Notes: a model not told the origin generated them from the sequence alone. Counted from the first letter of the stretch, positions 14,925 through 55,779 are shown. The stretch is DNA of 64,000 nt from Chloroflexota bacterium (GCA_051006215.1 JBPCIO010000141.1:50455-114454), one strand, 5' to 3'. Numbers and translations: made by a program.

Positions 14925-14941
14925 GTTGAATTGGCGTTGAG
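14925..14941 (-). promoter_or_regulatory. CTCAAC-N5-(T)TCAAC direct repeat (candidate operator) oriented toward the minus-strand epimerase operon
   Basis: Plus-strand GTTGAA-N5-GTTGAG, which reads on the minus strand as CTCAACgccaaTTCAAC. Half-site spacing is 11 bp. It lies about 50 nt upstream of the epimerase start. Confidence 0.4.
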
Positions 14942-14979
14942 GACACCGAAAGGGTCCTCACCTGAACGCAGTCGGATCG

Positions 14980-14997
14980 CTCAACCTTAAATCAACC
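14980..14997 (+). promoter_or_regulatory. CTCAAC-N5-TCAACC direct repeat (candidate operator) upstream of the methyltransferase gene
   Basis: gCTCAACcttaaaTCAACCg with 11-bp spacing, about 100 nt upstream of GTG 15094. It is the second copy in the same divergent intergenic region. Confidence 0.4.
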
Positions 14998-15093
14998 GAC
15001 GGGCAACTGCCCACTTGCCGAGCGGCCGCATAGTAAGGGCGGCTGGTGGAGCTGTGGTCCACCGTAGCGTGTATATAGGAAAGAGGAATCGCA

Positions 15094-15927
15094 GTGAGCG
15101 AAAATCGGCGCGACGTATGGAAGTCTGGACCCGCGCCGCAGATGCTTACGCGTCCGTATTACGAGCGTTTGCACTCCCTGGAACAACGGCACGGATGGCA
15201 TCGCGGGATGCGGGCGTACTCCAATGCGTTGCTCGCACCCCTGCTTAGGGGTGGGGCGGTTCGACACGTGTTGGACGTTGGCTGCGGCACGGGCGGCATG
15301 CTGGCGTGGCTGCGCAGCTTCCCCGGCGTGCGGAGTGTCGGACTCGAATACACGCGCGACGCACTCGCCTTCTGCCGCGCAGGTGGCCACCATGAGTTGA
15401 CTGAGGCATCTGCGCTCACACTTCCGTTTCGGAGCGGCGTTTTCGACCTGCTGGTGTGTACGGATGTCCTGCAGCACTTGCCCTACCCGCCGGGCCCCGA
15501 GGCCGCGTTGGCTGAAGCCCTGCGTGTTCTGCGACCGGGCGGGCACCTATTCCTGCGCACCAACAGCGCGTGGGGTGAGACGTCGAGTCAGGCAGCGACA
15601 TACCGCCGTTACCTGCGCAGCGACCTGGTGGCGGAAGTGCGTGCTGCAGGCTTCATCGTTCAACGCGCGAGCTATGCCAACCTTGTGCCCGCGCTGCCGA
15701 CCCTGGCCCGCCGCCGTTTCTTACCACGCGCGGCCGGGCACGTTCATGTCGAGCATGACCCTGGGCTGCAGCTCCAGACACGGTCCCCCAAACTCAAGTG
15801 GATCGACGACGCGCTCGCTGGCGTACTGCGCGGGGAGGCGGGAGTTCTTTCAAACGTTGGCGTCGACCTCCCGCTGGGCGATTCGCTGCTCCTTCTGGCG
15901 GGCAAACCCGCTGGTGCAGGGACGTAA
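15094..15927 (+). CDS. Class I SAM-dependent methyltransferase
   Basis: SAM-binding motif I (VLDVGCGTGGM) and a later motif (LRPGGHLFL). GTG start with an AGAGGA SD. Confidence 0.75.
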   Translation: MSENRRDVWKSGPAPQMLTRPYYERLHSLEQRHGWHRGMRAYSNALLAPLLRGGAVRHVLDVGCGTGGMLAWLRSFPGVRSVGLEYTRDALAFCRAGGHHELTEASALTLPFRSGVFDLLVCTDVLQHLPYPPGPEAALAEALRVLRPGGHLFLRTNSAWGETSSQAATYRRYLRSDLVAEVRAAGFIVQRASYANLVPALPTLARRRFLPRAAGHVHVEHDPGLQLQTRSPKLKWIDDALAGVLRGEAGVLSNVGVDLPLGDSLLLLAGKPAGAGT

Positions 15928-15931
15928 GCCA

Positions 15932-17047
15932 GTGGACCTCGCGGTGAACGGCCTGCGCCTCACAGGTAAGCGCTTTGGGGTGGGACGCTATGTGGAGTAC
16001 CTGCTCCGTCACTGGGGTACTGCCGAAAGGCTCCCGTTTGATCGGATCAAGGTTTATACGCCACACAAGATCGAGCCGACTGCGGAAATTCCTGAAGGCT
16101 TCGAGCCGCACGTCATCCCCGCCCCGGGACCCAATGGGTTGTGGGAGCAGGTGTTCCTTCCGTGGCACCACCACCCCGGCGATCTCCTGTTCTGCCCCAG
16201 CTATACCGTCCCGCTGGCTGCCAGAGGCAAAATCGTCGTCACCCACCTAGGCTCATATGAGGCCGTACCCCACGAATTTGCCTGGCGTGACCGACTCAAA
16301 ACGCGGATTCTGTACCAGCTCAGTGCACGGAAAGCGCACCGGGTGATCACCGTGTCCGACTCATCGAAACACGACATCCAGCGATATTACGGAATCCCCG
16401 AGGCAAAGGTCAGGGTCATCCCGCTCGGTGTGGACCCTGCCTTTCGGCCGCTCAATCGTGACGATTTGAACGATGCGGTCCGCCTGCGCTTCTTTGGCAC
16501 TCCGCAACCGTACATCCTGTTTGTGGGGAAGCTCTCCAGACGGCGGAATATCCCCGATCTGATCCGGGCCTTTGGCATGCTGCGCAGCGAAAACGGCACC
16601 ACCCACGGGCTGCTGCTGGTCGGCGAGAACACGGTTGGGTATGACCTGAATGCGCTCGCCCGAGCCAGCGGCGTCGAGGGCCTCGTGCAACACGTGCCAT
16701 TCGCTACTCACACCGAGCTCGTTGGGATCTACAACGCGGCCGAGCTGTTCGTATACCCGTCTTCGTATGAGGGATTTGGAATCCCGGTGCTCGAAGCGAT
16801 GGCATGCGGCGTCCCAACCATCACTCTGAATAACACCGCCTTCCGCGAGTTCGCCAAGGACGCGGCGATACTCGCGGACAACGGTTCCGCAGAGGCGATG
16901 TACCCAGCCATGGCGAAAGTTCTGCAGTCGCAAGAAATTCGGCATGAGATGTCCGCGCGCGGATTGCGACGGGCGGAGCGCTTCGGCTGGGCTGGCATCG
17001 CCCAACGCACAATGGATGTGCTCGCCGAAGTGGCTGGGGTCAGCTAG
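15932..17047 (+). CDS. Glycosyltransferase family 4
   Basis: GT4 C-terminal motifs (FVYPSSYEGFGIPVLEAMACGVPTI). The start is GTG 15932, just after the upstream stop at 15925-15927; the ORF-track start 15464 is an over-extension inside the methyltransferase gene. Confidence 0.8.
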   Translation: MDLAVNGLRLTGKRFGVGRYVEYLLRHWGTAERLPFDRIKVYTPHKIEPTAEIPEGFEPHVIPAPGPNGLWEQVFLPWHHHPGDLLFCPSYTVPLAARGKIVVTHLGSYEAVPHEFAWRDRLKTRILYQLSARKAHRVITVSDSSKHDIQRYYGIPEAKVRVIPLGVDPAFRPLNRDDLNDAVRLRFFGTPQPYILFVGKLSRRRNIPDLIRAFGMLRSENGTTHGLLLVGENTVGYDLNALARASGVEGLVQHVPFATHTELVGIYNAAELFVYPSSYEGFGIPVLEAMACGVPTITLNNTAFREFAKDAAILADNGSAEAMYPAMAKVLQSQEIRHEMSARGLRRAERFGWAGIAQRTMDVLAEVAGVS

Positions 17048-17048
17048 A

Positions 17049-18314
17049 GTGCGTGTACTCGTACTCGCGAGGAACTATCCGAGTCAAATGCTGCCGCAGC
17101 TCGGACTCTGGACACAGCGTTTGATCCAGTGCGTAACCCCTTTCGCGGAGCTCAAGGTGCTGGCACCCATACCTAGCGCCCCACCTCGAGTTTTGGCGCG
17201 CTTCGCGCCCTACTACGAACGCTACCGTGCAGCCGCACCGTCACGATGGGATGGCCCAGTCGAGGTGCTCCATCCGCGCTTCCTGACCGGGCCGGGCCAG
17301 AGCCTCTACGCTGTTGAGACCGCCAGCTATCTCGCTGCCGCACTGCCATACGTCATGCGGCTGCGGGCCAGGTTCCGGTTCGACCTTATCCACGCCCACT
17401 TCACCTATCCGGATGGAGTTGCAGCGGTGGCACTGGGGCGCTTGTTCCGAGTGCCCGTAGTCATCACCGAGCACGTCCTTTGGCTGCCCTGGATGAACGA
17501 TCAACCAGTCGTTCGACGCCAGGCCGCTTGGGCCGCCAGAGAATGCGCCGCGCATCTGGCAGTCAGTCACAGCGTTCGCCAGCATATCGGCCAGGTGACG
17601 GGCCGGCCGGATCGCGTGCATGTCGTGCCAAATGTTGTCGACGGCTCAGTCTTCACTCCGGCCGCGGGCCGCCACCCCGCTCCGAGGCAGATCCTTTTCG
17701 TGGGAGCAGTTCGGGTGTCGAAGGGGGTCGACGTCCTGCTGGAGACGCTGGCTCTGTTGCGGCGAAGGGGCGCCGACGTGCGTCTGACCCTGGTCGGCGA
17801 ACCCTACTACCGCGCCTACCAGCGTGAGGCGGAGCGACTGCGAGACCTCGCTGAGGCACTCGGTGTGACCGAATTCATCGACATGCTCGGCGGCCGACCA
17901 CCTGCCGAGGTGGCGCGGCTTATGGCCGAGAGTGCTGTCGTTGTGCTGCCCAGTCGTCGCGAAAGCTTCGGCGCTGTGCTGATCGAGGCGCTCGCCTGCG
18001 GCACGCCCGTGGTGGCCACCCGCTGTGGCGGCCCCGAGGAGATCGTGATGCCCGAAGTTGGCAAGCTTGTCGCACCCGAGGACCCGGCCGGCTTGGCCGA
18101 CGCACTTTTCGACGTACTCGAAGACGCACACGCCTATGATCCGCAAGCGTTACGGGAATATGCCCTCACACGCTTTGGTCCGGCGACGATCGGACAACAA
18201 ATCGCGACCCGGTATGACGTGGCGTACCGGGACGGCACATCGTTGTCGGCAACCACGGCCACCAAACGTGGGCGCAAGACCAAACGGAGTGGATACCATG
18301 AACACGCCCGATAG
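17049..18314 (+). CDS. Glycosyltransferase family 4
   Basis: N-terminal Glyco_trans_4-like domain plus a C-terminal Glycos_transf_1 domain (VVLPSRRESFGAVLIEALACGTPVVATRCGGPEE). GTG start 2 nt after the upstream stop. Confidence 0.8.
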   Translation: MRVLVLARNYPSQMLPQLGLWTQRLIQCVTPFAELKVLAPIPSAPPRVLARFAPYYERYRAAAPSRWDGPVEVLHPRFLTGPGQSLYAVETASYLAAALPYVMRLRARFRFDLIHAHFTYPDGVAAVALGRLFRVPVVITEHVLWLPWMNDQPVVRRQAAWAARECAAHLAVSHSVRQHIGQVTGRPDRVHVVPNVVDGSVFTPAAGRHPAPRQILFVGAVRVSKGVDVLLETLALLRRRGADVRLTLVGEPYYRAYQREAERLRDLAEALGVTEFIDMLGGRPPAEVARLMAESAVVVLPSRRESFGAVLIEALACGTPVVATRCGGPEEIVMPEVGKLVAPEDPAGLADALFDVLEDAHAYDPQALREYALTRFGPATIGQQIATRYDVAYRDGTSLSATTATKRGRKTKRSGYHEHAR

Positions 18315-19107
18315 CAAGCTCCGTGAAACGTCGGTGGTCAGCGCGAGGCTAGCTGCGCGAAATCTGGCCGCACCGGCGCTGCGTGTACTGGTGCTGTCCA
18401 GCAGCTACCCCAGTGGGGTCCTTCCACAAGTCGAGCTTTGGGCGCGCCGCCTGGTCCAGTCGGTGACCGGTTTCGCCGAGGCCAAGGTGGTAGCGCCCGT
18501 GCCATATGTCCCAGCCCTGCTGGATCGCTCCTCTCGGAATAACGCCCAATACAAAGACGTGCCGCGGCACCGTTGGGACGGGAAAGTAGAAGTGTTCCAT
18601 CCGCGCCTGCTGACTGGACCTGGCCAGAGCCTGTACGGGTTGGAAGCAGCGAGCTACGCCTGCACGGTGCTACCCACCGTCCACCGGCTGCGGCGTGAGT
18701 TCCCTTTCGACGTGATCCATGCTCACTCTAGCTACCCCGATGGCGTGGCCTGGGTGTTGTTAGGGCACCTGTACGGAATCCCGGTCATCATTACCGAGCA
18801 TCACCCGTGGTTGCCGAGGATGCGCCAGCTACGCCTGGTCCGCCAGCAAGCGGTGTGGGCCGCGCGCGAGTGCAATGCTCACATCGCGACGAGCCAGGCC
18901 GTCCGCGATCACATTGGCCAGTTCACTGGAGATCCCGAAAAGGTCAGTGTAATCCCCAACGTGATAGACCCGGCAGTGCTTGCTCCCACACTCCACCAGA
19001 GGCGAAACCCTGACCAGAACCTGTGGCTCGGAAAGCAATATGCGGCACTGGTTGGGCCGGTACTTCGATCGAATTTGCAGGCACGGTTCGCCGCCGCCTT
19101 GATCTAA
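18298..19107 (+). pseudogene. Truncated tandem paralogue of the preceding GT4: N-terminal domain only, catalytic C-terminal domain missing
   Basis: 270 aa aligning residue-for-residue with the N-terminal half of the 17049..18314 protein (RVLVLSSSYPSGVLPQVELW / RVLVLARNYPSQMLPQLGLW ... DVIHAHSSYPDGVAWVLLG / DLIHAHFTYPDGVAAVALG). It terminates where the paralogue continues into the E-X7-E domain. Confidence 0.5.
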
Positions 19108-19167
19108 CGAGACAACCACTCCAGGTGCGTAGGAAGGAGCGGCCAGCTTACGACTGCCACAGCGCAG

Positions 19168-19184
19168 TTCAACCGCGTCTCAAC
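19168..19184 (+). promoter_or_regulatory. TTCAAC-N5-CTCAAC direct repeat (candidate operator)
   Basis: agTTCAACcgcgtCTCAACcg with 11-bp spacing, about 70 nt upstream of ATG 19253. Confidence 0.4.
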
Positions 19185-19252
19185 CGCCCTTTGACGGCGC
19201 AGGTGGCAGGGTCCGCCTAGCCTTTGCACGTAGCGTAAAACGGAGTGAACCT

Positions 19253-20290
19253 ATGCGATTCTGGAACGACAAAAACGTCCTCGTCACCGGTGGGGCATCA
19301 TTCATTGGAAGCCATCTGGTCGATCGGCTTGTAGAGGCCGGCGCCCGGGTCCGAGTAGCCGACGACCTGTCCAGCGGGCGAGAGGCCAACCTGAGCGGGA
19401 GCCGCTCGGAGGTGGATCTCATGGTTGGGGACCTCCGTGAGCGCGAGTTCGCCCATACGGTCATGGCTGGCCAGCAGGTGGTCTTTCACCTGGCCGCCTG
19501 CCATGGCGGCCGCGGTTTCATCGACACCCACCCAGCAGACTGCGCCTCAAATATGGTCCTCGACGGAATGGTATTCGACGAGGCCTGCAAAGCGGGCGTA
19601 GACAAAATCGCTTTTGCGTCCTCCGCTTGCGTCTATCCCACTCGCCTGCAGGAGGCGCCAACCAACGGCGTGACGACATACCTCAAAGAGGAATGGGCCG
19701 ACCCGTTCAAAGAAGGTGCGGCGGGTGCGGACGGTGAGTACGGCTGGGCCAAACTTATGGGCGAAATGACGCTGCGTGCCTATAACAAGCAGCACGGTCT
19801 GCGGTCGGTAGCGTGCCGTCTGTTCACCGTGTACGGTGAGCGCGAGAACGAAAGCCACGCCATCATCGCTTTGATAGCCAAAGCGTTCACTGGTATGGAT
19901 CCGTACCCGATCTGGGGCAACGGGCAACAGGACCGCAACTTTACCTACGTCGGCGACATCGTGGAGGGCATGCTTCGTGCGGCCGCCTCAGATATCGATG
20001 ACGGCTCAGCTCTCAATATTGGTACAGCCGAGCACGTGAAGATCATCGAGAGTGCACACATGATCTTTGAAGAGACTGGCTTTCAGCCTGACAAGATCGA
20101 TTTTGACTTGAGCAAGCCAGTCGGCGTGTTCAGTCGCGCGGCGGATCTCAGCCGCACCCGTGCCCGTCTGGGCTGGGAGCCGAGCACTCGCTTTCGGGAT
20201 GGTCTCCGAGCGACCATCCGCTGGTATTACGATACCCACGATCGCAAGCACGTGGCCTCGCAACTGAACCGCTTGCTCACCGAGCGCTAG
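19253..20290 (+). CDS. NAD-dependent epimerase/dehydratase (extended SDR; UDP-glucuronate decarboxylase / sugar 4,6-dehydratase-like)
   Basis: VTGGASFIGSHLVDRL Rossmann motif. A YGWAK motif. A GGAG SD lies 8 nt upstream of the ATG. Confidence 0.85.
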   Translation: MRFWNDKNVLVTGGASFIGSHLVDRLVEAGARVRVADDLSSGREANLSGSRSEVDLMVGDLREREFAHTVMAGQQVVFHLAACHGGRGFIDTHPADCASNMVLDGMVFDEACKAGVDKIAFASSACVYPTRLQEAPTNGVTTYLKEEWADPFKEGAAGADGEYGWAKLMGEMTLRAYNKQHGLRSVACRLFTVYGERENESHAIIALIAKAFTGMDPYPIWGNGQQDRNFTYVGDIVEGMLRAAASDIDDGSALNIGTAEHVKIIESAHMIFEETGFQPDKIDFDLSKPVGVFSRAADLSRTRARLGWEPSTRFRDGLRATIRWYYDTHDRKHVASQLNRLLTER

Positions 20291-20331
20291 ACAGAAAGCT
20301 GGCTCCGCCCCATGCAACCCCAACGACGGCT

Positions 20332-21393
20332 GTGATCGAGAACGCTCCGCGTGTCCGGCCGCTGGTGTCGGTGGTCATGCCGGTCTACAACGGTGAGCGA
20401 TATCTGGCGGAGAGTCTCGACTCGGTACTCGCCCAGACCTACCCGAACTTCGAGGTGCTCGTCATGGACGACGCTTCAACCGACGGTACCTGGGCGATTG
20501 CCGAGGGGTACGGCAGCCGCGTGCGCGCACACCGGCAGCCAACCAATCGTGGTATCTACGCCAACGCCAATGCTGGCATCGACATGGCCAGAGGTGAGTA
20601 CATCGCGTTTTACCACGCCGACGACGTCTACGAGCCGACCATTATCGAAAGCGAAGTAGCCGTCCTCGAGGCCCGGCCTGAGATTGGCGCGGTTTTCTGC
20701 AAGGACCTGTTCATCGACGCTGCGAGCCAAGTGTACGGCCGCCTGGAACTCCCACCGGAGCTTCGGGGGAGTAGCGCTGTGGGCTATTCGGATGTGCTGA
20801 ATGCGCTGCTCACATATAAGAACGCGTTTTTGCGTTGTCCAAGCTGCCTGGCGCGTGCGTCCGTGTATCGCAGTGTGGGACTGTACCGCCAGGACGAGTT
20901 TCGGAATACCGCCGATCTTGACATGTGGCTGCGCATATCGCGCGCCTATCCCATCGTCGTCCTGGACGAGTACCTGTTCCGCTACCGTCACAATGTCGGC
21001 AATTCCGGACAACGGTACCGCCACCTGCGTACGGATCCCGAACGATTCTTCGCGATCATGGATCTCTACCTCCAGTCGGCCGAAGACCGGCGGTTGGTAC
21101 GTCGCAGCGCCCTCACGGCGTACGAAGGCCACCGCGCACAGGACAACCTGATGCGCGCGATCAGCTACTACGTGTTGGGTCAGGTTCCAGAGGCCGCCCG
21201 GGTGCTGCGCGAGGTGGATGGGCGGCGCTTGCTGGCAAGCCCGCGCTCCCAGCGCGTGCGCATGTTGGCCCTGCTGGGTGTGCTGCTGCTCCTGGTACGG
21301 CTGCCACGCGTACCGGGCGCGGCCGACGCGATGTATCGCCGCTGGCACGCCCAGACCGCTCCAGCGGCGGCGTCGCATCCGGCGCAAGGCTGA
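20332..21393 (+). CDS. Glycosyltransferase family 2
   Basis: N-terminal GT2 signature VSVVMPVYNGERYLAESLDSVLAQTY...VLVMDDASTDGT and a DxD-like motif. Confidence 0.8.
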   Translation: MIENAPRVRPLVSVVMPVYNGERYLAESLDSVLAQTYPNFEVLVMDDASTDGTWAIAEGYGSRVRAHRQPTNRGIYANANAGIDMARGEYIAFYHADDVYEPTIIESEVAVLEARPEIGAVFCKDLFIDAASQVYGRLELPPELRGSSAVGYSDVLNALLTYKNAFLRCPSCLARASVYRSVGLYRQDEFRNTADLDMWLRISRAYPIVVLDEYLFRYRHNVGNSGQRYRHLRTDPERFFAIMDLYLQSAEDRRLVRRSALTAYEGHRAQDNLMRAISYYVLGQVPEAARVLREVDGRRLLASPRSQRVRMLALLGVLLLLVRLPRVPGAADAMYRRWHAQTAPAAASHPAQG

Positions 21394-21398
21394 CCAGC

Positions 21399-24450: not shown

Positions 24451-24460
24451 CCGAAAGCGC

Positions 24461-26005: not shown

Positions 26006-26116
26006 TCGCGGCCGGCTCAACCCAAACTCAATCCCGCGCAGACTGCAGCAAACGCCTCGCCCCTCACTATTCCGCAGATTAGCGGATGCCTACCAGTCGA
26101 GGGTCGTGGACACGCC

Positions 26117-27337
26117 ATGCGGAATGACAGTTACCTTCGCGCCCTGACCGGGTTGCGCTTCTTTGCCGCGCTGCACGTCGTTGGACTTCACCTCCTGGCG
26201 GCCGGGCACCTGGAGAGGATGCCCGTTTTCGTACGTGACATGATTGCCCACGGGTACATGGCGGTGGGACTGTTCTTCGTGCTGTCCGGCTTTATTCTCA
26301 CTTACACCTAGCTGGGCAACGCGAGTGGAACGCTCGGAACATCTGGCCGCCGGCGCTTCTGGATCGCGCGATTCGCCCGCGTCTACCCCGTGTACGTGCT
26401 CGGCCTGGCACTGACCAGCCCCTTCTACTTTCCCGAGGCAATCCGCGACAACATCGCGCAAACCCTGTCGTCGATCGTCCTGGTGCCCACCATGCTTCAG
26501 GGCTGGACGCCGATGACCGCCACACTCTGGAACCCACCCGCCTGGTCTCTCTCGGCCGAAGTCTTCTTCTATCTGCTTTTCCCAGCGATCGGCCCATGGT
26601 TGGCCGGCCGACGTACTACCTGGCTGTTTGGCGCGTTGCTCGGCTCCTGGGCCCTGGCCTTTGTCGGCCCGACTGCCTATCAGGTGGCCTTCCCATCCGG
26701 CCCGCCCGCGGACCCCCACCTCGTGTCAATCGGCGGCCTGGCGCAGAGATTCGTGCTCTTTGGCCCACTGTTTCACTTACCCGAGTTCCTGGTCGGTATC
26801 GTGCTGGGCCACCTCTTTGTTCGTCATCCTGGACTGGCAGAACGCGCAGGTGCATTCCGGGCCATAGCGGCCGGCCTCGCGCTAGTCGGGGTCATCGCCT
26901 ACGTCGGCGGCGCCGGCGCTAGCGCGTCCCTGCCGCTCGTGTTCGTCCAGGCGATCTTTCTCCCCGTGTACGCGATCCTGGTGTGGAGCCTGGCGGTCGG
27001 GCGGCAGGGCCTGGCACGATTCCTGTCCCTACCCGGCATGGTGTTGCTCGGCGAGGCAAGCTACTCCCTGTACCTGCTGCACCTACCGGTGATCTGGTCG
27101 GTTGACTGGCTCGTCCAATTGCTTGCCGACCGAGGCGTATCACTTGGCCAGACGCGATGGATCGCTGCACTCGACCTCACGCTCGGGATTGCGCTATCCG
27201 TAATCGTGTTCCTTTATCTGGAGCGTCCGCGTCGTATCGCCATCAGGCGTCGCTTCGAACGGGCATATTTACCTCAACCAGGCAAGCATCCGCAATCCAG
27301 GTGGCGGTTTGGTATCACTCATTCAGCAGAAGCATGA
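26117..27337 (+). pseudogene. Acyltransferase family 3 (OatA/WecH-like O-acyltransferase) interrupted by an in-frame TAG at 26309-26311
   Basis: The ORF-track entries 26117..26311 and 26390..27337 are in the same frame and together align with the intact paralogue 28269..29516 (LFFVLSGFILTYT*LG.. versus LFFVLSGFVLTYTYTG..). The TAG replaces a Tyr codon of the paralogue. Confidence 0.55.
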
Positions 27338-27373
27338 CTCGGAGTCCCTGGGCGAGTTGGACCGCTCTGGGCG

Positions 27374-28199: not shown

Positions 28200-28216
28200 C
28201 TCAACCACGCCTCAAC
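28200..28216 (+). promoter_or_regulatory. CTCAAC-N5-CTCAAC direct repeat (candidate operator)
   Basis: cgCTCAACcacgcCTCAACgg with 11-bp spacing, about 55 nt upstream of GTG 28269. Confidence 0.45.
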
Positions 28217-28268
28217 GGGGAGTGAACACATCCAGACCTCGCGTAGTCAACAATGACTAACTACATTC

Positions 28269-31179: not shown

Positions 31180-31211
31180 TACGGCTGTGTCTCAGGTGCT
31201 GATTTGAGCCC

Positions 31212-32012: not shown

Positions 32013-32178
32013 GCCTTGCCCTCCAGAGCTTTACCGTCGCACGAACCTGCTCGCGCAATCCCACGCTCGGAAGCGTTGCAAGCGCGCGTCTTGACCGCTG
32101 TTGGAGGTCGGTTGCGAAGTAGTTGGCCTGCAAGTCTCTACCGTGGGTCAACCAGCGCTCTACGGACGGCCGAGCAGC

Positions 32179-33993: not shown

Positions 33994-34006
33994 ACCCTGC
34001 CACCTG

Positions 34007-34249
34007 GTGGCCGATATCGACTTCTGGAGCCTGGCCACTGCATTGCGGGGGCGCGCGTCTATGTTGGCGATCGTCGACTGCGCCGCTTCGGTGACAGTGG
34101 TGGCAGTATCGGATGGCGTCTACACCATTGACGACACCGGCACGCAGCACCGACTGTTACTTGGCTCCTCGTTGTCCATCCACAGCTTGACGGCCCAGGG
34201 ATCCGCACCCCCTGCTGCATGGTCAGGCCATTGTTGTACTCGCGGATGA
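34007..34249 (+). CDS. Hypothetical small protein (80 aa)
   Basis: The ORF occupies the gap between two genes. Its third-position GC bias is consistent with coding. There is no homology evidence. Confidence 0.2.
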   Translation: MADIDFWSLATALRGRASMLAIVDCAASVTVVAVSDGVYTIDDTGTQHRLLLGSSLSIHSLTAQGSAPPAAWSGHCCTRG

Positions 34250-34337
34250 CCTCGGTGTCGCTAACACGTTCACCTCGGAGCTGCTGGCGGCTCTCTGGCA
34301 AGCGGCCTGCCCTGTCTCCGCCTGTTAGGATCCGAGT

Positions 34338-35090: not shown

Positions 35091-35092
35091 GT

Positions 35093-37194: not shown

Positions 37195-37228
37195 CAGAGA
37201 CTGCAGCGTCAATGGCTCGAGCAGCGAC

Positions 37229-37708: not shown

Positions 37709-38031
37709 GACTGCTGCTCCCCCCTCTCCGGATCGGAGAAACGCTATGTACCCCGTGCTTGCATGGTCCACCTGAGTCAAGCACCTAATCCTACGCGGTC
37801 GCGGCGCTGCGTCATCACGATATGCTCGGGCTGGCTCGGCCTCGCCCTCGTCACCGGAGCGGCACAACCCATCTCCAACTGGTAACGGCGAGGCCGGCCA
37901 GGACGCCGAGCAACCAACATTCGACCGTAGGGTTGACGGAAGCTCTATGAGCGTGGCGCCAAACACAGGGGGTGTGTGCGATTATTTGAGTACGCAAGCT
38001 TGCTCACGCAGCCTTGCCTATAGGAGGAACG

Positions 38032-38757
38032 ATGCAACACCGACTGATCAGCATGGCTGCAGGCGTAGCCTTGCTGCTGACTGCAGGCGGGGGCGCCGCG
38101 CACGCGCAAACAACCAGCGACGCCGCCACCCACGACGTGACCACTGACGGCGTCCACGACGCCACCCCCGACCCAATGCATGACGCCACGCCCGACGCAA
38201 TGCATGACGGCGTGCATGACGTGACCGTTGACGGCGTGCATAACCCCACGCCCGACGACGCGATGCATGACGTGAGTGCTGAGGGTGTCCATGACGCCCC
38301 GCCCGACCCGATGCACGACGCCACCCACGATGTGACCACTGACGGCGTACATGACGCCACTCCGGACCCGATGCATGACGCGACCACCGACGGCGTGCAT
38401 GACGCCACGCCCGACCCGATGCATGACGCCACCCACGATGTCGTCCCCGGCGCCACGCACGACGTCAACCCCAGCGCCACGCACGACGCCAACCCGGGTG
38501 CCGCGCATGACGCCACCCACCCCGGCGCTACGCACGACGTGAACCCCGGCGCTACGCACGACGTCAATCCCGGCACGACGCACGATGTCAACCCTGGTCC
38601 GACGCACGATGTGAGTCACCCCGCGCCGAGCGCCACGCCTGAGCTGGACAGCCTTTTCTTGTTCGGCACCGGTGCTACTGGCGCAGCCGGCTATGGGCTC
38701 ATGCGAGTTCGCGCTGGCCGGCCCAAACAGTCTACAGCCGACGACTCAGAAAGCTAA
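38032..38757 (+). CDS. Secreted His-Asp octad-repeat protein with a C-terminal PEP-CTERM-like (PEL variant) sorting signal; candidate exosortase substrate
   Basis: AGGAGG SD 6 nt upstream of ATG 38032. Signal peptide (MQHRLISMAAGVALLLTAGGGAAHA). About 25 HD dipeptides at 8-residue spacing. The C-terminus reads PELDSLFLFGTGATGAAGYGLMRVRAGR (Pro-Glu-X motif, hydrophobic helix, Arg cluster) followed by an acidic tail. Confidence 0.75.
   Translation: MQHRLISMAAGVALLLTAGGGAAHAQTTSDAATHDVTTDGVHDATPDPMHDATPDAMHDGVHDVTVDGVHNPTPDDAMHDVSAEGVHDAPPDPMHDATHDVTTDGVHDATPDPMHDATTDGVHDATPDPMHDATHDVVPGATHDVNPSATHDANPGAAHDATHPGATHDVNPGATHDVNPGTTHDVNPGPTHDVSHPAPSATPELDSLFLFGTGATGAAGYGLMRVRAGRPKQSTADDSES
38100..38630 (+). 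repeat. 24-nt (8-codon) tandem repeat array encoding the His-Asp octads
   Basis: Repeated units such as gacgccacccccgacccaatgcat / gacgccacgcccgacgcaatgcat, and a later variant cacgacgtcaaccccggcgctacg. This array generates mirror-image spurious ORFs on the opposite strand. Confidence 0.7.
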
Positions 38758-38773
38758 GTGAGACTCCCGCCCT

Positions 38774-40051
38774 GTGCTTTCCGGAATGGCCGGGGCTCGG
38801 GACTCCCTCCACGCCCGGCTCGCTGTGCAACCATCGGCTAACGGTGGCGGCGGCTTGATCCGCTGGTGGTTCGCCGCCGCTGTCGTAGGCATGGGCGCCC
38901 TGGCGGCCGGTTGGTTGAGCTACGAGTTCTGGCGGCTGCTCTTCCAGCCGGGCATCATGGGCGCCGTCGACCTCCTGCTGCGCCGGGACGAAGTGCACCG
39001 CTGGTTCGGCGGCCTGCCCGTGTACAGCGAGCTCAGGACTGCCACGTACCCGCCCGCAAGCATGGTCTTGCTGTGGCCGTTGGTTGGCTGGCTGGACGCC
39101 ACGGCCAGCCGCTGGCTGTGGGCGATTAGCACGATCGGGGCGCTGGCCTGGCTGGTGTGGTTGGTGGTGCACGCGAGTGGGGCCAGGACCCGCTTCGAGA
39201 TTGCCTTCGTAGCGTTGCTGCCCCTGGCGTCTTATGCCGCTGGCGCTGCCATCGGCAACGGGCAGCTGATCGTACAGGTGCTGCCGATCCTGCTGGCCGC
39301 CGTGCTCTTGCTCCGGTCAAACGAGTTACGCGGCTGGAAGTGGAGAATTCTCGCGGCCGGACTGCTCCTGGCCAGTCTGGTGAAGCCAACCCTGGCTACT
39401 CCGTTCTTCTGGATTGCGCTGTTCGCCGCCGGCTCACCCTGGCCAGTCGTGTTCGCGAGTGCGGGTTACGTTGGGCTTACACTCCTGGCCGCCCAGTTTC
39501 AGCCCACACCTTTGCCGATACTTCTGCGCGAATGGCTCGCGCGCAGCCAAATCACAGCGACTGGCAGTAGCGGAGCCAACCTTCACGCGTGGCTTGCAGC
39601 GCTGGGACTTGGTGATTGGATCCCAGCGGCGTCACTGCTGGTCCTCCTGTTCTTGGGAGCCTGGGTATACCGCCATCGCCACGCTGATCTCTGGCTGCTT
39701 CTGGGCGTCACGAGCATCGTCACCAATATGTGGTCGTATCACCTCTGGTACGACGACCTCATCGTGGTCCTGGCCGGCATCAGCGTCTTTCGGCTCGCCC
39801 GCTCGGTCGCGCCTACACGCCCCCTGATGCTGACCCGCGCGCTGCTCGCGGCGTTGGTCCTGACCAGCCTGGCCCCGGGTGGACTGTACACTCTTCCGCC
39901 ACCCTGGAATGGGGTGTACGTGTGGTTGCAAACCGTCGTTCGGGTGGCTGTCCTGGTGTACCTCATCGGCGAGACCCGGCGACAATCGGCTCTGAGTGTT
40001 GCACACCCATTGCCGGCGCCGAGAGCATCGACGGCGCAAACGATCGTCTAA
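38774..40051 (+). CDS. DUF2029/GT87-like multi-pass membrane protein (putative polyprenol-phosphate-sugar dependent glycosyltransferase)
   Basis: 425 aa with about 10 TM helices. Its size and topology resemble GT87/PimE-like mannosyltransferases. It lies directly downstream of the PEL-CTERM protein. Confidence 0.45.
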   Translation: MLSGMAGARDSLHARLAVQPSANGGGGLIRWWFAAAVVGMGALAAGWLSYEFWRLLFQPGIMGAVDLLLRRDEVHRWFGGLPVYSELRTATYPPASMVLLWPLVGWLDATASRWLWAISTIGALAWLVWLVVHASGARTRFEIAFVALLPLASYAAGAAIGNGQLIVQVLPILLAAVLLLRSNELRGWKWRILAAGLLLASLVKPTLATPFFWIALFAAGSPWPVVFASAGYVGLTLLAAQFQPTPLPILLREWLARSQITATGSSGANLHAWLAALGLGDWIPAASLLVLLFLGAWVYRHRHADLWLLLGVTSIVTNMWSYHLWYDDLIVVLAGISVFRLARSVAPTRPLMLTRALLAALVLTSLAPGGLYTLPPPWNGVYVWLQTVVRVAVLVYLIGETRRQSALSVAHPLPAPRASTAQTIV

Positions 40052-40099
40052 CTACGCGAAAAGTCGGCGCGGACGGTAGCAAGGCCTCTTCCGACTTCG

Positions 40100-40116
40100 C
40101 TCAACGGTAACTCAAC
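40100..40116 (+). promoter_or_regulatory. CTCAAC-N5-CTCAAC direct repeat (candidate operator)
   Basis: cgCTCAACggtaaCTCAACgtgg with 11-bp spacing, about 90 nt upstream of the oxidoreductase start. Confidence 0.45.
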
Positions 40117-40209
40117 GTGGCGTAAACCTGCGTTGCTCGCCGCGCCCATCAGACTCCCATCACCAAACGTGACGCTCAATTGTCAGTACTCATGCGGGAA
40201 AGAAGTGAG

Positions 40210-41664
40210 ATGGTAGAAACTGGTCAGCGCACAGCAGTCATCATGGGAGCCGGTCCAGCGGGGCTCGCAACAGGCCTGGCTCTGGCACGCGCTGGCTGGT
40301 TTGTTCACGTCGTTGAGCAAGCCTCGGTCGTCGGCGGCCTGGCGCGAACGGTGGAGCAGGACGGCTTCCGTTTCGATATCGGCGGACATCGCTGGTTCAC
40401 CAAGAAAGATGTTCTCAACCACTTCCTCATCGACCTGCTCGGCGACGAGATGGTGATGGTCGACCGCATCAGTCGAATTTTCTTCGACGGCACGTATGTG
40501 GACTACCCGCTCCGCGCGGCCAACGTACTGTCCCACATTGGACCGATGACCAGCGCGCGTGCCATCGGTGATTTCGTCGTGTCGAAGGCTACCCAGCGGT
40601 TGTCCAACAAGCCCGTGGTGTCCATGGAGGACGCCTACGTGGGCCAGTTCGGACGCACGCTGTACGAGCTGTTTTTTCGCAACTACTCCGAAAAGGTATG
40701 GGGCGAGTCATGCTCCGAGCTCTCGGGTGACTGGGTCACCCAGCGCAGCAAGGGTCTGTCGCTATTTACCGCGGTCAAGGACGCCTTCAAACGCAGCGAC
40801 GGCGAGGTCGAGAGCCTAGTCGACAGGTTCATGTACCCGGCTCTGGGTTTCGGTCGCATATCCGAGCGCATGGTTGAGGACATCGAAGCCACTGGCGGGC
40901 GCGTGGATCTCGGCCAACGCGTCATCCGCGTCGACCACGATCACGGCCAGGTGAGCGGGATTACCGTCAGCGACGGTGCGCGTGAGCGCCAGATCAACGG
41001 CGATGTCTTCGTCTCCTCTATTCCGATGACCGAGCTGGCCCAGGTCCTGGCGCCGGCTGCCACATCCGGCGTCCTCGAAGCCAGCCGCAGCCTGACCTAT
41101 CGCGACCTGATCACGGTCAATCTGTTGCTGGACCGTCCCCAGGTAACCAACGACACGTGGGTCTACGTCCACGATCCGAGCGTATCGTTCGCCCGCCTCC
41201 ACGAGCCACGCAACTGGAGCAGCCAAATGGCGCCTGAGGGTAAGACATCGCTCGTGCTCGAGCTCTTCTGCGAAGCTGGCGACCAGCTCTGGCAGCGCAC
41301 CGACGATGATCTGGTCGAGCTCGTTTCAGGAGATCTGGCTGACAAGCTCCACTTCATCGAGCGGAACGAGGTAATGGGTGGATTCGCCATCCGCAGCCGC
41401 GACGCCTACCCTCGGTATGGCCTTGAGTACCGCGACGCGGTCGCTCAGATCAAGAGCTGCCTGGGCAGTTTCGCGAATCTGAACATCGTTGGGCGGGGTG
41501 GCACCTTCCGCTACAACAACACCGACCACGCAATCGAGACCGGCTTGTTGGCCGCTCGGCACATCCTGGGCGAGGACGTGGATGTCGATTCCGTCAACAG
41601 CGAACAGGAGTACCTCGAGGAGCGACGGGTTCCAGCGCGGCTCTCGCGGGCTGCCGTTGCCTGA
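40210..41664 (+). CDS. FAD/NAD(P)-binding oxidoreductase (amine-oxidase / UDP-galactopyranose-mutase-like superfamily)
   Basis: N-terminal dinucleotide-binding motif VIMGAGPAGLATGLALA...VVEQASVVGG. The start is uncertain (ATG 40210 or 40192; the ORF-track TTG is at 40180). Confidence 0.65.
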   Translation: MVETGQRTAVIMGAGPAGLATGLALARAGWFVHVVEQASVVGGLARTVEQDGFRFDIGGHRWFTKKDVLNHFLIDLLGDEMVMVDRISRIFFDGTYVDYPLRAANVLSHIGPMTSARAIGDFVVSKATQRLSNKPVVSMEDAYVGQFGRTLYELFFRNYSEKVWGESCSELSGDWVTQRSKGLSLFTAVKDAFKRSDGEVESLVDRFMYPALGFGRISERMVEDIEATGGRVDLGQRVIRVDHDHGQVSGITVSDGARERQINGDVFVSSIPMTELAQVLAPAATSGVLEASRSLTYRDLITVNLLLDRPQVTNDTWVYVHDPSVSFARLHEPRNWSSQMAPEGKTSLVLELFCEAGDQLWQRTDDDLVELVSGDLADKLHFIERNEVMGGFAIRSRDAYPRYGLEYRDAVAQIKSCLGSFANLNIVGRGGTFRYNNTDHAIETGLLAARHILGEDVDVDSVNSEQEYLEERRVPARLSRAAVA

Positions 41665-41692
41665 GCTCGGGCCCCATTCGCCGGGGCCAACG

Positions 41693-42751
41693 GTGGCGCC
41701 AGCGATCAGCGTGGTCGTTCCCGTCTACAACGGCGGCGCCGCCTTCCAGCGCTGCCTGGCGGCTCTGGCCGGCAGCCGCGACATAGCCTGGGAGCTGGTC
41801 GTGGTCGACGATGGTTCGACTGACGATTCCGCCGAGACCGCCCAACTGACGGGTGCCCGCGTCCTGACCACGGACCGCGCGCGCAGCGGACCCGGACCCG
41901 CCCGCAACCTGGGTGCCCGCGTCGCTCGCGCTCCGATCCTGTGTTTCATCGATGCTGACGTCCTTGCTCGCTCGGACACGCTGGCAAACTTTGCGGCGCT
42001 CTTCGCCGCCGACCCCGGCCTCACCGCCGCATTCGGTTCGTATGACCCGCAACCCGCCCACCCTGGTCTTCTCTCCCAGTATCGGAACTTGCTCCATCAC
42101 TTCGTCCACCAGACGGGCCAGGAAGAGGCCTCAACCTTCTGGAGCGGCTGTGGCGCTATCCGCCGCCAGGCGTTCCTGGACCTGAACGGGTTCGACGCCG
42201 CGTATACGCGCCCGAGCATCGAGGACATCGAGCTCGGCTATCGCGTCCTGGCCGCTGGTGGTCGCATCCGACTGGCCAAGCACATTCAGGTAAAACATTT
42301 GAAGCACTGGACGTTCTGGAACATCCTTCAGACGGATATCCGTGACCGGGCCCTGCCCTGGACGCAGTTGATCGTGCGAACGGGACAGCTTCCGAATGAC
42401 CTGAACCTTCAGACCGCCAGTCGCGTCAGCGCGGTATGCGTGTATGGGCTGTTGGTCAGCGCGGGTCTCAGCATCTGGCAGCCTCTGGCGCTTCTGGCCA
42501 CAATCCCGCTGGTGGCGCTGCTGCTGGTCTGTAACCAGCACCTGTACTCGTTCTTGCTGGGCCAGCGTGGGTTCCGTTTCCTGCTGTGTGTGCTGCCCAT
42601 GCACTGGCTGTACTACGGCTACTCGGCCCTGGTCTTCAGCGCTGGCATGGCCTTCGAAAAAGTGCGCGCCCGGCGACGGGCCGCGACCGCGCCAGTCCTT
42701 GTGCGTTCGAACGGCGGCGTCGCCTCGTCTGACGTCGAGCTCGCGCTCTGA
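41693..42751 (+). CDS. Glycosyltransferase family 2
   Basis: ISVVVPVYNGGAAFQRCLAAL...LVVVDDGSTDDS...CFIDADV. C-terminal TM helices. The start is uncertain (GTG 41693 or TTG 41657); the ORF-track start 41489 lies inside the upstream gene. Confidence 0.75.
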   Translation: MAPAISVVVPVYNGGAAFQRCLAALAGSRDIAWELVVVDDGSTDDSAETAQLTGARVLTTDRARSGPGPARNLGARVARAPILCFIDADVLARSDTLANFAALFAADPGLTAAFGSYDPQPAHPGLLSQYRNLLHHFVHQTGQEEASTFWSGCGAIRRQAFLDLNGFDAAYTRPSIEDIELGYRVLAAGGRIRLAKHIQVKHLKHWTFWNILQTDIRDRALPWTQLIVRTGQLPNDLNLQTASRVSAVCVYGLLVSAGLSIWQPLALLATIPLVALLLVCNQHLYSFLLGQRGFRFLLCVLPMHWLYYGYSALVFSAGMAFEKVRARRRAATAPVLVRSNGGVASSDVELAL

Positions 42752-42769
42752 GCAGGCATAATCCCGTAC

Positions 42770-43675
42770 GTGGGAGTGGGGCCGCCTGGGCGCCGAATTT
42801 CGATCCTCATCGCCGCCCGAGACACCCGCGCCGATACACGCGAGTGTCTCGCGGCCCTCGCCCCCCAGGTCGACTCGCAAACAGAAGTGCTGGTGGTGTG
42901 TGGCTCGGAGGATGGGACCGCCGAGATGGTGAATCGCGACTTTGGCTGGGCACGCTCACTCCAATATCCGGTGGGTACCGGCTTCGGCGAGTTACGCGCG
43001 CATGGGCTGGCCAGCGCCACGGGTGATCCGATTGTCTTCCTGGATGTGTACTGTCGGGTGCGTCCAGGCTGGCTCGCCCGCTGGCGCGAGGAGCCCTGGG
43101 AACGCTATGCAGCGGTGGGCGGCCTGGTCGAACCGGCGCCCCGCCCCAGTCTGGCGGACTGGGCCGCCTTCTTGAGCGAGTATGGTCCGTACCTCCCCCC
43201 CCTGCCGGCAGGCGAGACAGACCACCTCCTTGGCAACAACGTCGGCTTTCGCCGCGCCGCGCTGGAGCGGGCTGGCTTGATCGGTGCGGCCGAGTTCTGG
43301 AAAACCTTCGCGCTCTGGGCACTGTCCGCGCAGGGTGAACACTGCTGGACGGACCCACGCCAGCTCGTGTCTCACGTCCGGTCCATTCAGCCGGGCGAGT
43401 TCAGCATTCACCGCTACTGGCACGGGCGATGTTTCGGCGCGACCCGAACCCTGAGGAGCAGGTGGCGAGTGCGTCTCGCGCGCGCTGCGAGCTGTCCCGC
43501 CGTGCCGTTGCTCCTGACCGCGCGACTGGTCCGCGACGTGCACCCCAATCGAGCCTATCGACGTGTCCTGTGGCGGAGCCTGCCTTTCGCGCTGCTCTAC
43601 CATGCCGCCTGGGCGCTGGGCGAGCTCGACGGCTACCTGCGCGGTGCGGGCGGCGCGTGTGCCCGCCTGGCATGA
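42770..43675 (+). CDS. GT2-like (GT-A fold) protein, single domain, paralogous to the two domains of the 44817 gene
   Basis: ISILIAARDTRADTRECLAALAP...VLVVCGSEDGT and LADWAAFLSEYGPYLPPLPAG are shared with both halves of 44817..46718. Confidence 0.55.
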   Translation: MGVGPPGRRISILIAARDTRADTRECLAALAPQVDSQTEVLVVCGSEDGTAEMVNRDFGWARSLQYPVGTGFGELRAHGLASATGDPIVFLDVYCRVRPGWLARWREEPWERYAAVGGLVEPAPRPSLADWAAFLSEYGPYLPPLPAGETDHLLGNNVGFRRAALERAGLIGAAEFWKTFALWALSAQGEHCWTDPRQLVSHVRSIQPGEFSIHRYWHGRCFGATRTLRSRWRVRLARAASCPAVPLLLTARLVRDVHPNRAYRRVLWRSLPFALLYHAAWALGELDGYLRGAGGACARLA

Positions 43676-44757
43676 CTGAGGAGCGTGTGAACGACCCGGA
43701 CGCTGGGTTGATCAGCTTCTGCTGTCCTCGCTGCAGCGGTCCGCTTGCGACGCGTTCCAGCGAATATCACTGTAGTGCCTGCAGCCACACCTACCCGGTC
43801 ATACTCGGAATTCCCGACTTCCGCGTTTTCCCGGATCCGTACATCGACTACGCAGATGACCGAGCCAAGGCCGGGCGCGTCCTGCACGGCATGGACAACG
43901 CCTCGTTTGCGGCGTTGGTGCGCCGCTACTGGGACCTCACCCCCGACGTTCCGCGCCACCTGGTCGACGGCTATGTCAGCCATGTCCTAATGGCCGGCGA
44001 GCGTGCCAGCTCGATTCTCGATGAGGCGCGACGTGCTGGGAATCGCATGGGCGCGCGGCCGGCCCTCGGAAGCGGTGCCATCCTCGAAATCGGATGCGGG
44101 ACAGGCGGCTTGTTGATCGCCGCCGCCCGCGAGTATCAGCAGGTTGTGGGGGTCGACATCGCCTTCCGCTGGATCGCGATCGCCACCCGCCGCGTGCAAG
44201 AGGCGGTCACCAACGGCCAGTTGACACCCGAGCAAGCTCGTCGCGTCCGACTCGTATGCGCCTGCGCGGAAAGCTTGCCTCTGCCGTCAGGCGCGTTCGA
44301 TCTGGTGGTGGGCGCTGGCGTTGTCGAGCACGCCAGCCGCCAGCCCGACCTGCTACGGCAGGCGCGTCGAGCGCTACGCCCTGGCGGACTACTCTTCCTC
44401 ACCACGGTCAACCGCCTGAGCCTGGCACCCGAGCCGCACGTCGGGGTCTGGGGTGTGGGTTTCCTACCCCGCCGCTTGATGGAACCCTACGTACGCCGGG
44501 TGCGAGGTGTTCCGTACCGCTATATTCGATTACACTCCGCCCTGGGTCTCGCTGGCCTCCTGCGTAGCGCTGGGTTCGCCCGCTGGGAGGTTCAGCCACC
44601 GCCAGTGGCGGACGGTGACATGCGCCGCTACTCTGCCGGCGTCCAGGCGTGCGGCCGGCTGTACAACCGGGTGCGGCAACTGCCTGGTCCTCGCCAGGTA
44701 CTCAGTTTGGTCGGTCCGCTGCTCCAGATCGCAGCCGTCCGTGGCAACGAACCGTAA
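43672..44757 (+). CDS. SAM-dependent methyltransferase with an N-terminal Cys4 zinc-ribbon (Trm112-like) segment
   Basis: CPRCSGPL...CSACSHTYP followed by methyltransferase motif I ILEIGCGTGGL. The ATG overlaps the upstream stop (ATGA). Confidence 0.75.
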   Translation: MTEERVNDPDAGLISFCCPRCSGPLATRSSEYHCSACSHTYPVILGIPDFRVFPDPYIDYADDRAKAGRVLHGMDNASFAALVRRYWDLTPDVPRHLVDGYVSHVLMAGERASSILDEARRAGNRMGARPALGSGAILEIGCGTGGLLIAAAREYQQVVGVDIAFRWIAIATRRVQEAVTNGQLTPEQARRVRLVCACAESLPLPSGAFDLVVGAGVVEHASRQPDLLRQARRALRPGGLLFLTTVNRLSLAPEPHVGVWGVGFLPRRLMEPYVRRVRGVPYRYIRLHSALGLAGLLRSAGFARWEVQPPPVADGDMRRYSAGVQACGRLYNRVRQLPGPRQVLSLVGPLLQIAAVRGNEP

Positions 44758-44760
44758 CGG

Positions 44761-44777
44761 CTAAACCACGTCTCAAC
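44761..44777 (+). promoter_or_regulatory. CTAAAC-N5-CTCAAC direct repeat (candidate operator)
   Basis: CTAAACcacgtCTCAACcgagcgttgacgg with 11-bp spacing, about 45 nt upstream of GTG 44817. Confidence 0.35.
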
Positions 44778-55745: not shown

Positions 55746-55779
55746 CCCCGAAGGGTAGTCGTCGTATGTGGTTGCGGTG

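Follow-up and report, generated by a model that had tools for sequence, protein, structure and literature searches.

The stretch of DNA analysed here, called the window throughout, comprises 64,000 nt of a Chloroflexota bacterium (GCA_051006215.1 JBPCIO010000141.1:50455-114454) with a G+C content of 63.5%, at most about 10% of it intergenic. Pfam scans disclosed a large polysaccharide island with more than 20 glycosyltransferases, accompanied by sugar epimerases/dehydratases, aminotransferases, methyl- and acyltransferases and an asparagine-synthase homologue. An initiating sugar transferase, a WecG-type transferase, an exosortase (7898-8770) with an EpsI-like partner, an HlyD-like protein, a DnaJ-domain protein and a MinD/ParA-type NTPase (AAA_31, CbiA) are also encoded in the island. 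At 55.8-60.8 kb the scans recovered the three OmpR-type regulators and two kinases that a preliminary description of the sequence had placed there. The same description had noted a direct repeat, CTCAAC-N5-CTCAAC, upstream of several transcription units of the island, and had proposed it as a regulon operator for these co-located regulators.

To set the chance level of the repeat, we used 100 dinucleotide-preserving shuffles of the window. The exact form (CTCAACNNNNNCTCAAC) occurs twice, at 28200 and 40100, and in none of the shuffles. With up to one mismatch, eight copies were observed against 0.22 expected (shuffle maximum, 2), which makes the repeat real and stronger than first claimed. Six of these copies had been listed before and all were present: 14925-14941(-), 14980-14996(+), 19168-19184(+), 28200-28216(+), 40100-40116(+) and 44761-44777(+). 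The copy at 7271-7287(-) lies within the minus-strand triple copy, likewise present, at 7253-7287, and the eighth, 26016-26032(+) (CTCAACccaaaCTCAAT), was missing from the earlier list, as was a further site at 11432-11448(-) (CGCAACcaaatCGTAAC) before the WecG-type gene. All eight matches are intergenic, although intergenic DNA is so small a share of the window, and all eight have the orientation of the gene downstream. The CTCAAC hexamer by itself is also enriched in intergenic DNA (15 of 42 window copies). The start codon lies 56-114 nt from the first half-site, within the 45-150 nt described previously. For the degenerate copy at 4651-4667(-) the distance is 164 nt to the GTG at 4503, or 66 nt to an ATG further upstream; this copy has two mismatches and counts as real because its orthologues in relatives are stronger.

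A position weight matrix trained on 20 sites of relatives, with zero window sites in the training set, placed its ten top window matches in intergenic regions without exception (4667-, 26016+, 7287-, 44761+, 11448-, 14980+, 19168+, 28200+, 14941- and 40100+). Twelve window matches reached 14 bits or more, whereas 30 Markov shuffles averaged 0.63 such matches and never gave more than 2. The top scores of the individual intergenic regions were bimodal, with at least 16 bits in nine regions between 4.5 and 45 kb, and at most 5 bits in the non-coding stretches 33994-34337, 55240-55779, 60790-60898, 62741-64000 and 1-1514. Because these stretches, at least five in number, are devoid of the motif, the array marks a regulon, and its reading as a general promoter feature was rejected.

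Relatives of the locus were found via homologues of the epimerase on eight contigs (L081, L082, L083, L084, L085, L086, L087 and L168), which have a common core gene order and of which about 20 kb each was read. L085 and L086 count as one relative because the epimerase protein is identical in both. All 8 related loci contained the exact 17-mer, which was absent from all 160 unrelated loci (2.2 Mb in total); of the latter, 80 were asparagine-synthase loci of other phyla and the other 80 were regulator loci. Matches of at least 14 bits numbered 0.45-1.07 per 64 kb in the controls versus 11 in the window. A scan of genome contigs with the asparagine synthase had returned distant taxa only (identity up to 62%), none with the motif, and these loci were therefore used as negative controls. 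With the 271-aa regulator as query, a metagenome scan yielded nine relatives (46-81% identity), most of them on short contigs; the others, at up to 36%, were used as controls. A megablast comparison of 20 kb of window sequence with plasmids yielded zero matches.

An eight-sequence alignment of the epimerase promoter revealed as invariant the three half-sites (CTCAAC, TCAACC and CTAAC), the A..A.T of the -10 element and the TG of the start codon, with spacers diverged between these blocks. Arrays are also kept in relatives before the HlyD-like gene, the glycosyltransferase gene that follows the DnaJ gene, and the WecG-type gene; footprints of the repeat are conserved in the eight relatives. The sites could instead be copies of one promoter cassette or small mobile repeat, with no selection for a binding site. 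The promoters at 19171-19231 and 44764-44824 are 74% identical over 61 nt, and at least one promoter duplication therefore probably occurred. The other window sites, however, have the hexamers alone in common, their spacers and flanks being unrelated, and in the orthologous promoters of the eight genomes the hexamers stay while the intervening DNA diverges, which argues that the hexamers are under selection and were not spread as a cassette. We regard this explanation as highly improbable; a dispersed repeat, mobile cassette, repetitive extragenic palindrome (REP)-like or miniature inverted-repeat transposable element (MITE)-like element was rejected, given that alignability over the whole length is limited to one pair.

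To define the anatomy of the site, 31 sites from the window and the relatives were aligned, anchored on the first hexamer. Information is concentrated in four blocks over a flat background:

Positions 1-7: first half-site, CTCAACc
Positions 10-18: second half-site, a/t-T-CTCAAC-c
Positions 26-29: third half-site, AAC-g (A27 in 30 of 31 sites, C28 in 29 of 31)
Positions 51-56: -10-like element, AAnAYT (T56 in 23 of 31 sites, in a 63.5% G+C genome)

The array consists of three head-to-tail units in an 11-bp register, all facing the same side of the helix and starting at positions 1, 12 and 23; the third half-site follows every pair and was absent from the preliminary description. The two promoter-distal units are strong (CTCAACc), and the proximal unit is weaker, retaining mainly AAC. 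Between the third half-site and the -10-like hexamer, nearly all sites have a non-conserved gap of 22 nt. Since most sites were picked without either the third unit or the -10, these are independent signals. If transcription starts about 7 nt past the -10-like hexamer, the three hexamers fall at about -63/-58, -52/-47 and -41/-36, and the proximal unit therefore abuts the place of a -35 hexamer. No -35 consensus was found where the proximal unit lies, and a consensus promoter/terminator scan of the motif regions yielded zero canonical sigma-70 promoters and zero terminators.

This geometry bears on whether the hexamers are promoter elements of an alternative sigma factor, with the AAC of the proximal unit as its -35 and no regulator involved. 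The proximal unit (GnnAAC, TTGAC) does resemble the AAC-type -35 familiar from extracytoplasmic function (ECF) sigma factors, and the -10-like element is at a fixed distance. That distance, however, places 22 nt between AAC and the -10-like element, beyond the 16-18 nt spacers of sigma-70-family promoters, and the two best-conserved units are at about -50 and -60, where sigma reads no sequence. Furthermore, no sigma factor gene was found among approximately 60 window open reading frames (ORFs) scanned, nor in the conserved cluster. On account of the 22-nt spacing we reject the proximal unit as a sigma-factor -35, and we hold an alternative sigma factor to be very unlikely as the source of the pattern.

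The arrays and their promoters in the polysaccharide island are as follows:

14914-14941 (-), epimerase array: CTCAAC-gccaa-TTCAAC-cgggg-GCTAAC; -10 GATACT 14886-14891; ATG 14878, 7 nt past the -10
14980-15007 (+), methyltransferase array, divergent partner of the epimerase array: CTCAAC-cttaa-ATCAAC-cgacg-GGCAAC; -10-like ATAGTAA 15030-15036; GTG 15094 with Shine-Dalgarno sequence
19168-19195 (+), epimerase/dehydratase array: TTCAAC-cgcgt-CTCAAC-cgccc-TTTGAC; -10 TAGCCT 19218-19223; ATG 19253
26016-26043 (+), acyltransferase array: CTCAAC-ccaaa-CTCAAT-cccgc-GCAGAC; -10 ACTATT 26066-26071; ATG 26117; 23.1 bits
28200-28227 (+), acyltransferase array: CTCAAC-cacgc-CTCAAC-gggga-GTGAAC; -10 inside 28244-28255 (TAGTCA or AACAAT); GTG 28269
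40100-40127 (+), array of an amine-oxidase-like gene: CTCAAC-ggtaa-CTCAAC-gtggc-GTAAAC; -10 CAGACT 40150-40155; ATG 40210
44761-44788 (+), glycosyltransferase array: CTAAAC-cacgt-CTCAAC-cgagc-GTTGAC; -10 TAGGCT 44811-44816; GTG 44817 or 44823
7238-7287 (-), variant array of the HlyD-like gene: CTCAAC-caatt-CTCAAT, a third CTCAAC offset by 7 nt, and an in-phase TTCAAC 7238-7243; -10 TAGCAT 7222-7227; GTG 7218 or 7212
4640-4667 (-), glycosyltransferase array: GTCAAC-cgaat-CGCAAC-cctgg-AAACAC; -10 CAGAAT 4612-4617; GTG 4503; 24.6 bits
11421-11448 (-), weaker sense array of the WecG-type glycosyltransferase: CGCAAC-caaat-CGTAAC-ttcgg-CTGTAC; start 11373; 19.0 bits
11474-11501 (+), antisense-oriented copy in the same intergenic region as the WecG-type array: TGCAAT-ggctt-CTCAAC, with neither third half-site nor -10
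32100-32163 (both strands), two weak candidate arrays placed back to back between divergent genes, low confidence: CTCTAC-N5-GTCAAC-N5-CTCTAC 32136-32163(+) and GCCAAC-N5-CGCAAC-N5-TCCAAC 32100-32127(-); 11.1 and 11.2 bits

In the HlyD-like promoter, the pair CTCAAC-N5-CTCAAT is kept in L084, L085, L087 and L168, and the later (T/C)TCAAC with TAGCAT in L084 and L085. Orthologues of the 4640-4667 site were located at L083 9758, L084 20448 and L168 9725. The antisense copy has counterparts at the equivalent place between a family-2 glycosyltransferase gene and the WecG-type gene, exact at L081 13364-13380(-), with one mismatch at L083 4374(-) and L084 13531(-), and with two at L168 4308(-). This copy may act as a roadblock or as an upstream activating site, or it may be a promoter for antisense transcription.

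At several genes the start codon is only 6-9 nt past the -10, and at the 44761 promoter one GTG immediately follows TAGGCT with a second 6 nt after it. Because the start codons sit so close after the -10, leaderless mRNAs are predicted for the epimerase (14878) and the glycosyltransferase (44817/44823). Genes with a start 6-9 nt past the predicted -10 and devoid of a Shine-Dalgarno sequence are those at 14878, 44817/44823 and 7212/7218 and the orthologues in L081-L087 and L168, a distribution suggesting that this Chloroflexota lineage commonly makes leaderless mRNAs. In the remaining units, Shine-Dalgarno sequences are present and the leaders measure 20-50 nt.

Two of the listed genes have further peculiarities. 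Directly past the -10 of the 4667 array, a 32-codon upstream ORF begins at ATG 4601 (4503-4601, minus strand) and opens MREELRVCACKGTLCSSRCLHLAWVPAGREAA; the TAG of this ORF overlaps the GTG (4503) at which the glycosyltransferase starts, and in L084 the ATG equivalent to 4601 is the glycosyltransferase's own start. The acyltransferase gene of the 26016 array (26117-27337, +) has an in-frame TAG at 26309-26311 after codon 64 (..ILTYT*LGNAS..), which may mark the gene as a pseudogene or stem from a sequencing error or from population variation.

The regulator/kinase cluster and its promoter sites comprise the following:

59974-60789 (+): OmpR/PhoB-family response regulator, 271 aa, monocistronic; recognition helix SRTIDVHIGRLRVKL
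58530-59780 (-): PAS-domain histidine kinase (maximal ORF extent)
57803-58567 (-): OmpR/PhoB-family response regulator, 254 aa, downstream of the PAS histidine kinase; alternative candidate binder
56486-57373 (-): short histidine kinase (maximal ORF extent)
55780-56463 (-): OmpR/PhoB-family response regulator, 227 aa, in an operon with the kinase 56486-57373
59783-59810 (+): promoter array of regulator 59974-60789, weak-weak-strong, CTCACC-tgaat-CCCCAT-ccgtc-CTCAAC; -10-like AACTCT 59833-59838
57386-57432 (-): second kinase/regulator promoter, with a degenerate pair GTGAAC-N5-CGCAAC 57416-57432, then an exact TGTAAC-N5-TGTAAC 57386-57402

The monocistronic regulator is divergent from a kinase-regulator-kinase-regulator series. 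Each of the three regulators contains Response_reg and Trans_reg_C domains only, and they are the sole proteins with a DNA-binding Pfam domain among the scanned ORFs. Structure comparison and NCBIfam models identified all three as generic MtrA/RegX3/PhoB-like proteins, none reaching a curated equivalog; because all are generic family members, sequence comparison does not settle the choice of binder among them. The recognition helix of the 271-aa regulator is invariant among close relatives. At codon 69 (60178-60180) of this regulator, the phospho-acceptor position is occupied by Glu (GAG), where ten of ten aligned homologues and the window's two other regulators have Asp. Glu-69 could make the regulator phosphomimetic or independent of phosphorylation, or could be a variant of the assembly or of the population.

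The promoter region between the PAS kinase and the 271-aa regulator (59781-59973) had been described as dense in CAACC/GGTTG half-sites, from which autoregulation was suggested. The density holds numerically, with four copies against 0.62 expected, but only the copy in the 59783-59810 array is conserved in relatives, and the case for autoregulation is confined to this one conserved array. It is kept in L081, L085 and L089 (four genomes including the window) at the standard 22-nt distance from a -10-like hexamer, and is a candidate autoregulatory site of regulator 59974-60789. In the same region, reading by eye revealed an upstream ORF (approximately 59866-59981) with a strong Shine-Dalgarno sequence (GGAGGAGG), whose TAG overlaps the GTG of the regulator (GTGGCTAG). 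This GTGGnTAG overlap is kept in L081 and L085, where ORF length and sequence differ, and the conserved stop/start overlap suggests translational coupling for the 271-aa regulator.

The second kinase/regulator promoter bears another word. TGTAAC-N5-TGTAAC occurs in the window only at 57386-57402(-) and is kept at L081 4613-4629, L085 4060-4076 and L086 375-391, and the degenerate GTGAAC-N5-CGCAAC pair (57416-57432) is likewise conserved in L081 and L085/L086. Further TGTAAC-like words follow the repeat in L081 and L085. The repeat matches the WalR consensus, TGTWAH-N5-TGTWAH, letter for letter. It probably serves another regulator of the cluster as operator, and would most simply be an autoregulatory site of the short kinase/227-aa regulator pair. 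With this second word on the second kinase/regulator promoter, at least two specificities seem to be at work.

These observations bear on a further alternative, in which the transcription factor that binds the operator is encoded outside the window (another OmpR-type protein, a SARP-like one or an unrelated one), with the local two-component genes controlling other targets or part of the island. The contig is at least 142 kb long and the window covers only 64 kb of it, four motif-bearing relatives have no regulator cluster within 10 kb of the epimerase gene, and the TGTAAC repeat makes it probable that at least one of the three regulators has another specificity. On the other hand, the cluster adjoins the polysaccharide core in the window, L081 and L085/L086, the relatives with a visible flank; the regulators' own promoters bear CTCAAC-type arrays conserved in relatives; and no other DNA-binding domain was found among the scanned window ORFs. 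An outside factor with this division of labour is, in our assessment, unlikely. A link between motif and local regulators also came from a homologue of the 271-aa regulator with 49% identity, retrieved by protein similarity alone: the intergenic region beside it contains a CTCAAC-type site of 23 bits.

Taken together, the array is restricted to promoters, stands at a fixed distance from a -10-like element, leaves a footprint in eight relatives and is absent from 2.2 Mb of unrelated loci, and its proposed role as a regulon operator is upheld. We consider it likely that the array serves as operator for a transcription factor that switches on most of the island's transcription units in concert, and that the binder is one of the three local regulators, with 59974-60789 favoured. 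The co-located OmpR-type regulators are indirectly indicated as probable binders by the architecture of the site, by their position as the sole proteins with DNA-binding Pfam domains, by cluster linkage and by the array in a regulator promoter. Regulator 59974-60789 is preferred because of its cluster linkage, the conserved array in its own promoter and the 23-bit site beside its 49% homologue, and we give it a little under an even chance of being the binder. Regulator 57803-58567 is an unlikely but credible candidate and 55780-56463 an improbable one, and a factor encoded elsewhere has perhaps slightly better than a one-in-five prospect.

On this assignment, the two strong distal units would be occupied by a head-to-tail dimer of a winged-helix OmpR/PhoB-family response regulator. 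Cooperative recruitment would bring one more subunit to the weaker proximal unit, where it could contact RNA polymerase and so replace the missing -35 element. Glycosyltransferase, sugar-modification, export and exosortase operons would then be switched on together, several of them from mRNAs predicted to be leaderless. From sequence we infer the identity of the binder, activation as opposed to repression, the transcription start points and leaderless translation; activation in particular is proposed because the array spans -63 to -35 and leaves the -10 free. A regulator that silences the island until release would instead make the array a repressor site. The extra in-phase TTCAAC (7238-7243) between the -35 and -10 of the HlyD-like promoter and the conserved antisense copy inside an operon are in positions more typical of repression. 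The standard array, in contrast, covers about -63 to -35, with the -10 and start point free and no -35 element, a layout typical of activator-dependent promoters, making repression a very doubtful explanation.

Several points weigh against activation of the island by a local regulator. The odd number of half-sites and the conserved antisense copy do not follow from the simple model, from which the HlyD-like promoter also departs with its variant layout and its extra in-phase half-site between the -35 and -10 positions. If -35 elements are generally weak in this lineage, their absence is no proof of activator dependence. The regulator sequences hold nothing that predicts CTCAAC specificity, the 59783-59810 array scores just 2.6 bits with the two-half-site matrix, and regulator homologues at 60% identity (L090 and L091) have no motif nearby. 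In L083, L084, L087 and L168 the regulator cluster lies outside the fetched DNA, and the reading covers 64 kb of the genome and about 20 kb per relative, so that the regulator may be encoded elsewhere.

Some neighbouring genes of the island deserve mention. The gene 38032-38757(+) encodes a secreted protein of about 30 His/Asp-rich tetrapeptide-type repeats, with 12- and 24-nt periodicity of the DNA at 38096-38647 and a PEP-CTERM-like C-terminal tail (PELDSLFLFGTGATGAAGYGLMRVRAGR); this tail makes the protein a likely exosortase substrate. A long opposite-strand ORF (37945-38619) is probably spurious. Upstream of 38032-38757 no convincing CTCAAC array was found, the best nearby matrix score being 9.3 bits. 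Two small conserved membrane proteins, whose genes do not stand out by ORF length, are encoded at 1355-1498(-), after the MinD/ParA-type NTPase gene (48 aa, 73% identical to an L083 protein), and at 10250-10444(-), between the WecG-type and sugar-transferase genes (approximately 65 aa). As the latter gene lies inside the maximal ORF 8775-10403, the gene of that ORF probably starts later.

Head-to-tail hexamers with 11-bp spacing that abut the -35 position are the standard architecture of OmpR/PhoB-family sites (PhoB, OmpR, Streptomyces PhoP, GlnR and CtrA). The array conforms to it, with a tandem direct repeat at 10-11 bp (starts 1, 12 and 23 in 31 sites), a fixed orientation at or upstream of the -35 relative to predicted transcription starts, and a linked regulator with receiver and Trans_reg_C domains in the window, L081 and L085/L086. 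Like the Pho box of PhoB in Escherichia coli, it has 11-bp head-to-tail repeats oriented with transcription at the -35 place of promoters without a -35, and the candidate regulators share with PhoB a receiver and a winged-helix Trans_reg_C domain. In contrast to the Pho box, the half-site is CTCAAC instead of CTGTCAT, there are three units instead of two, the distance from array to -10 hexamer is about 22 nt instead of about 10 nt, and the targets are polysaccharide and exosortase genes, not phosphate genes. The array does not belong to the Pho regulon: PhoB and PhoR models scored far below their cut-offs, and the targets are glycosyltransferases, sugar-modifying enzymes, export proteins and an exosortase.

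The PHO boxes of Streptomyces PhoP and the GlnR boxes of actinomycetes consist of two well-conserved 11-nt core units and of extension units that are less conserved and are occupied cooperatively. Their half-sites (GTTCACC; GTnAC/GAAAC) are of a similar style to those of the array, whereas phylum, word and regulon all differ. The CtrA box TTAA-N7-TTAAC and the WalR box TGTWAH-N5-TGTWAH are also OmpR-family direct repeats with an 11-bp period; unlike in these, the word here is CTCAAC, and the regulators fall below the CtrA and YycF/WalR equivalog cut-offs. A full-text literature search found no paper on a CTCAAC direct repeat with a response regulator. The array is an ordinary kind of regulatory site, with no new kind of mechanism.

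For PEP-CTERM/exosortase loci of Proteobacteria, Haft et al. 2006 (PMC1569441) proposed regulation by PrsK/PrsR/PrsT, which include a two-component system, and genes of that system have a cis-regulatory sequence in common. PrsR is an NtrC-type sigma-54 enhancer-binding protein, and the motif includes a -24/-12 element (PMC1569441). The system described here is a functional analogue in that two-component genes lie near exosortase and polysaccharide genes and a common cis-motif precedes genes of the system. Unlike PrsR, its regulators are OmpR-type without a sigma-54 interaction domain and its promoters have a -10-type element, and unlike in the PrsK/PrsR system, the motif precedes biosynthesis and export operons and not the PEP-CTERM-like gene 38032-38757. 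With Response_reg and Trans_reg_C domains only and -10-type promoters, the locus does not belong to the sigma-54 PrsK/PrsR type.

We offer tentatively, at rather less than even confidence, a broader reading in which exosortase-linked polysaccharide production in this Chloroflexota lineage is governed by three OmpR-type regulators, acting as a dedicated cascade through two or more distinct operators. CTCAAC would act on about ten biosynthesis and export promoters and the regulators' own, and TGTAAC on the second kinase/regulator operon. The cascade would take the place of the proteobacterial sigma-54/PrsR logic, and its master regulator, 59974-60789, would work on promoters that lack a -35 and give rise to leaderless mRNAs. 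If this were true, the Glu at the phospho-acceptor position of 59974-60789 might lock the island on.

The array provides a concrete cis-regulatory code (site, geometry and target promoters) for a polysaccharide/exosortase island of an uncultured phylum. It bears on the regulation of exosortase loci outside Proteobacteria, where further regulators and DNA motifs remained to be found as of 2006 (PMC1569441). The arrays are ready-made probes for binding assays with the three candidate regulators, and the motif can be used to delimit the regulon in metagenome-assembled genomes and to predict transcription units and leaderless starts.

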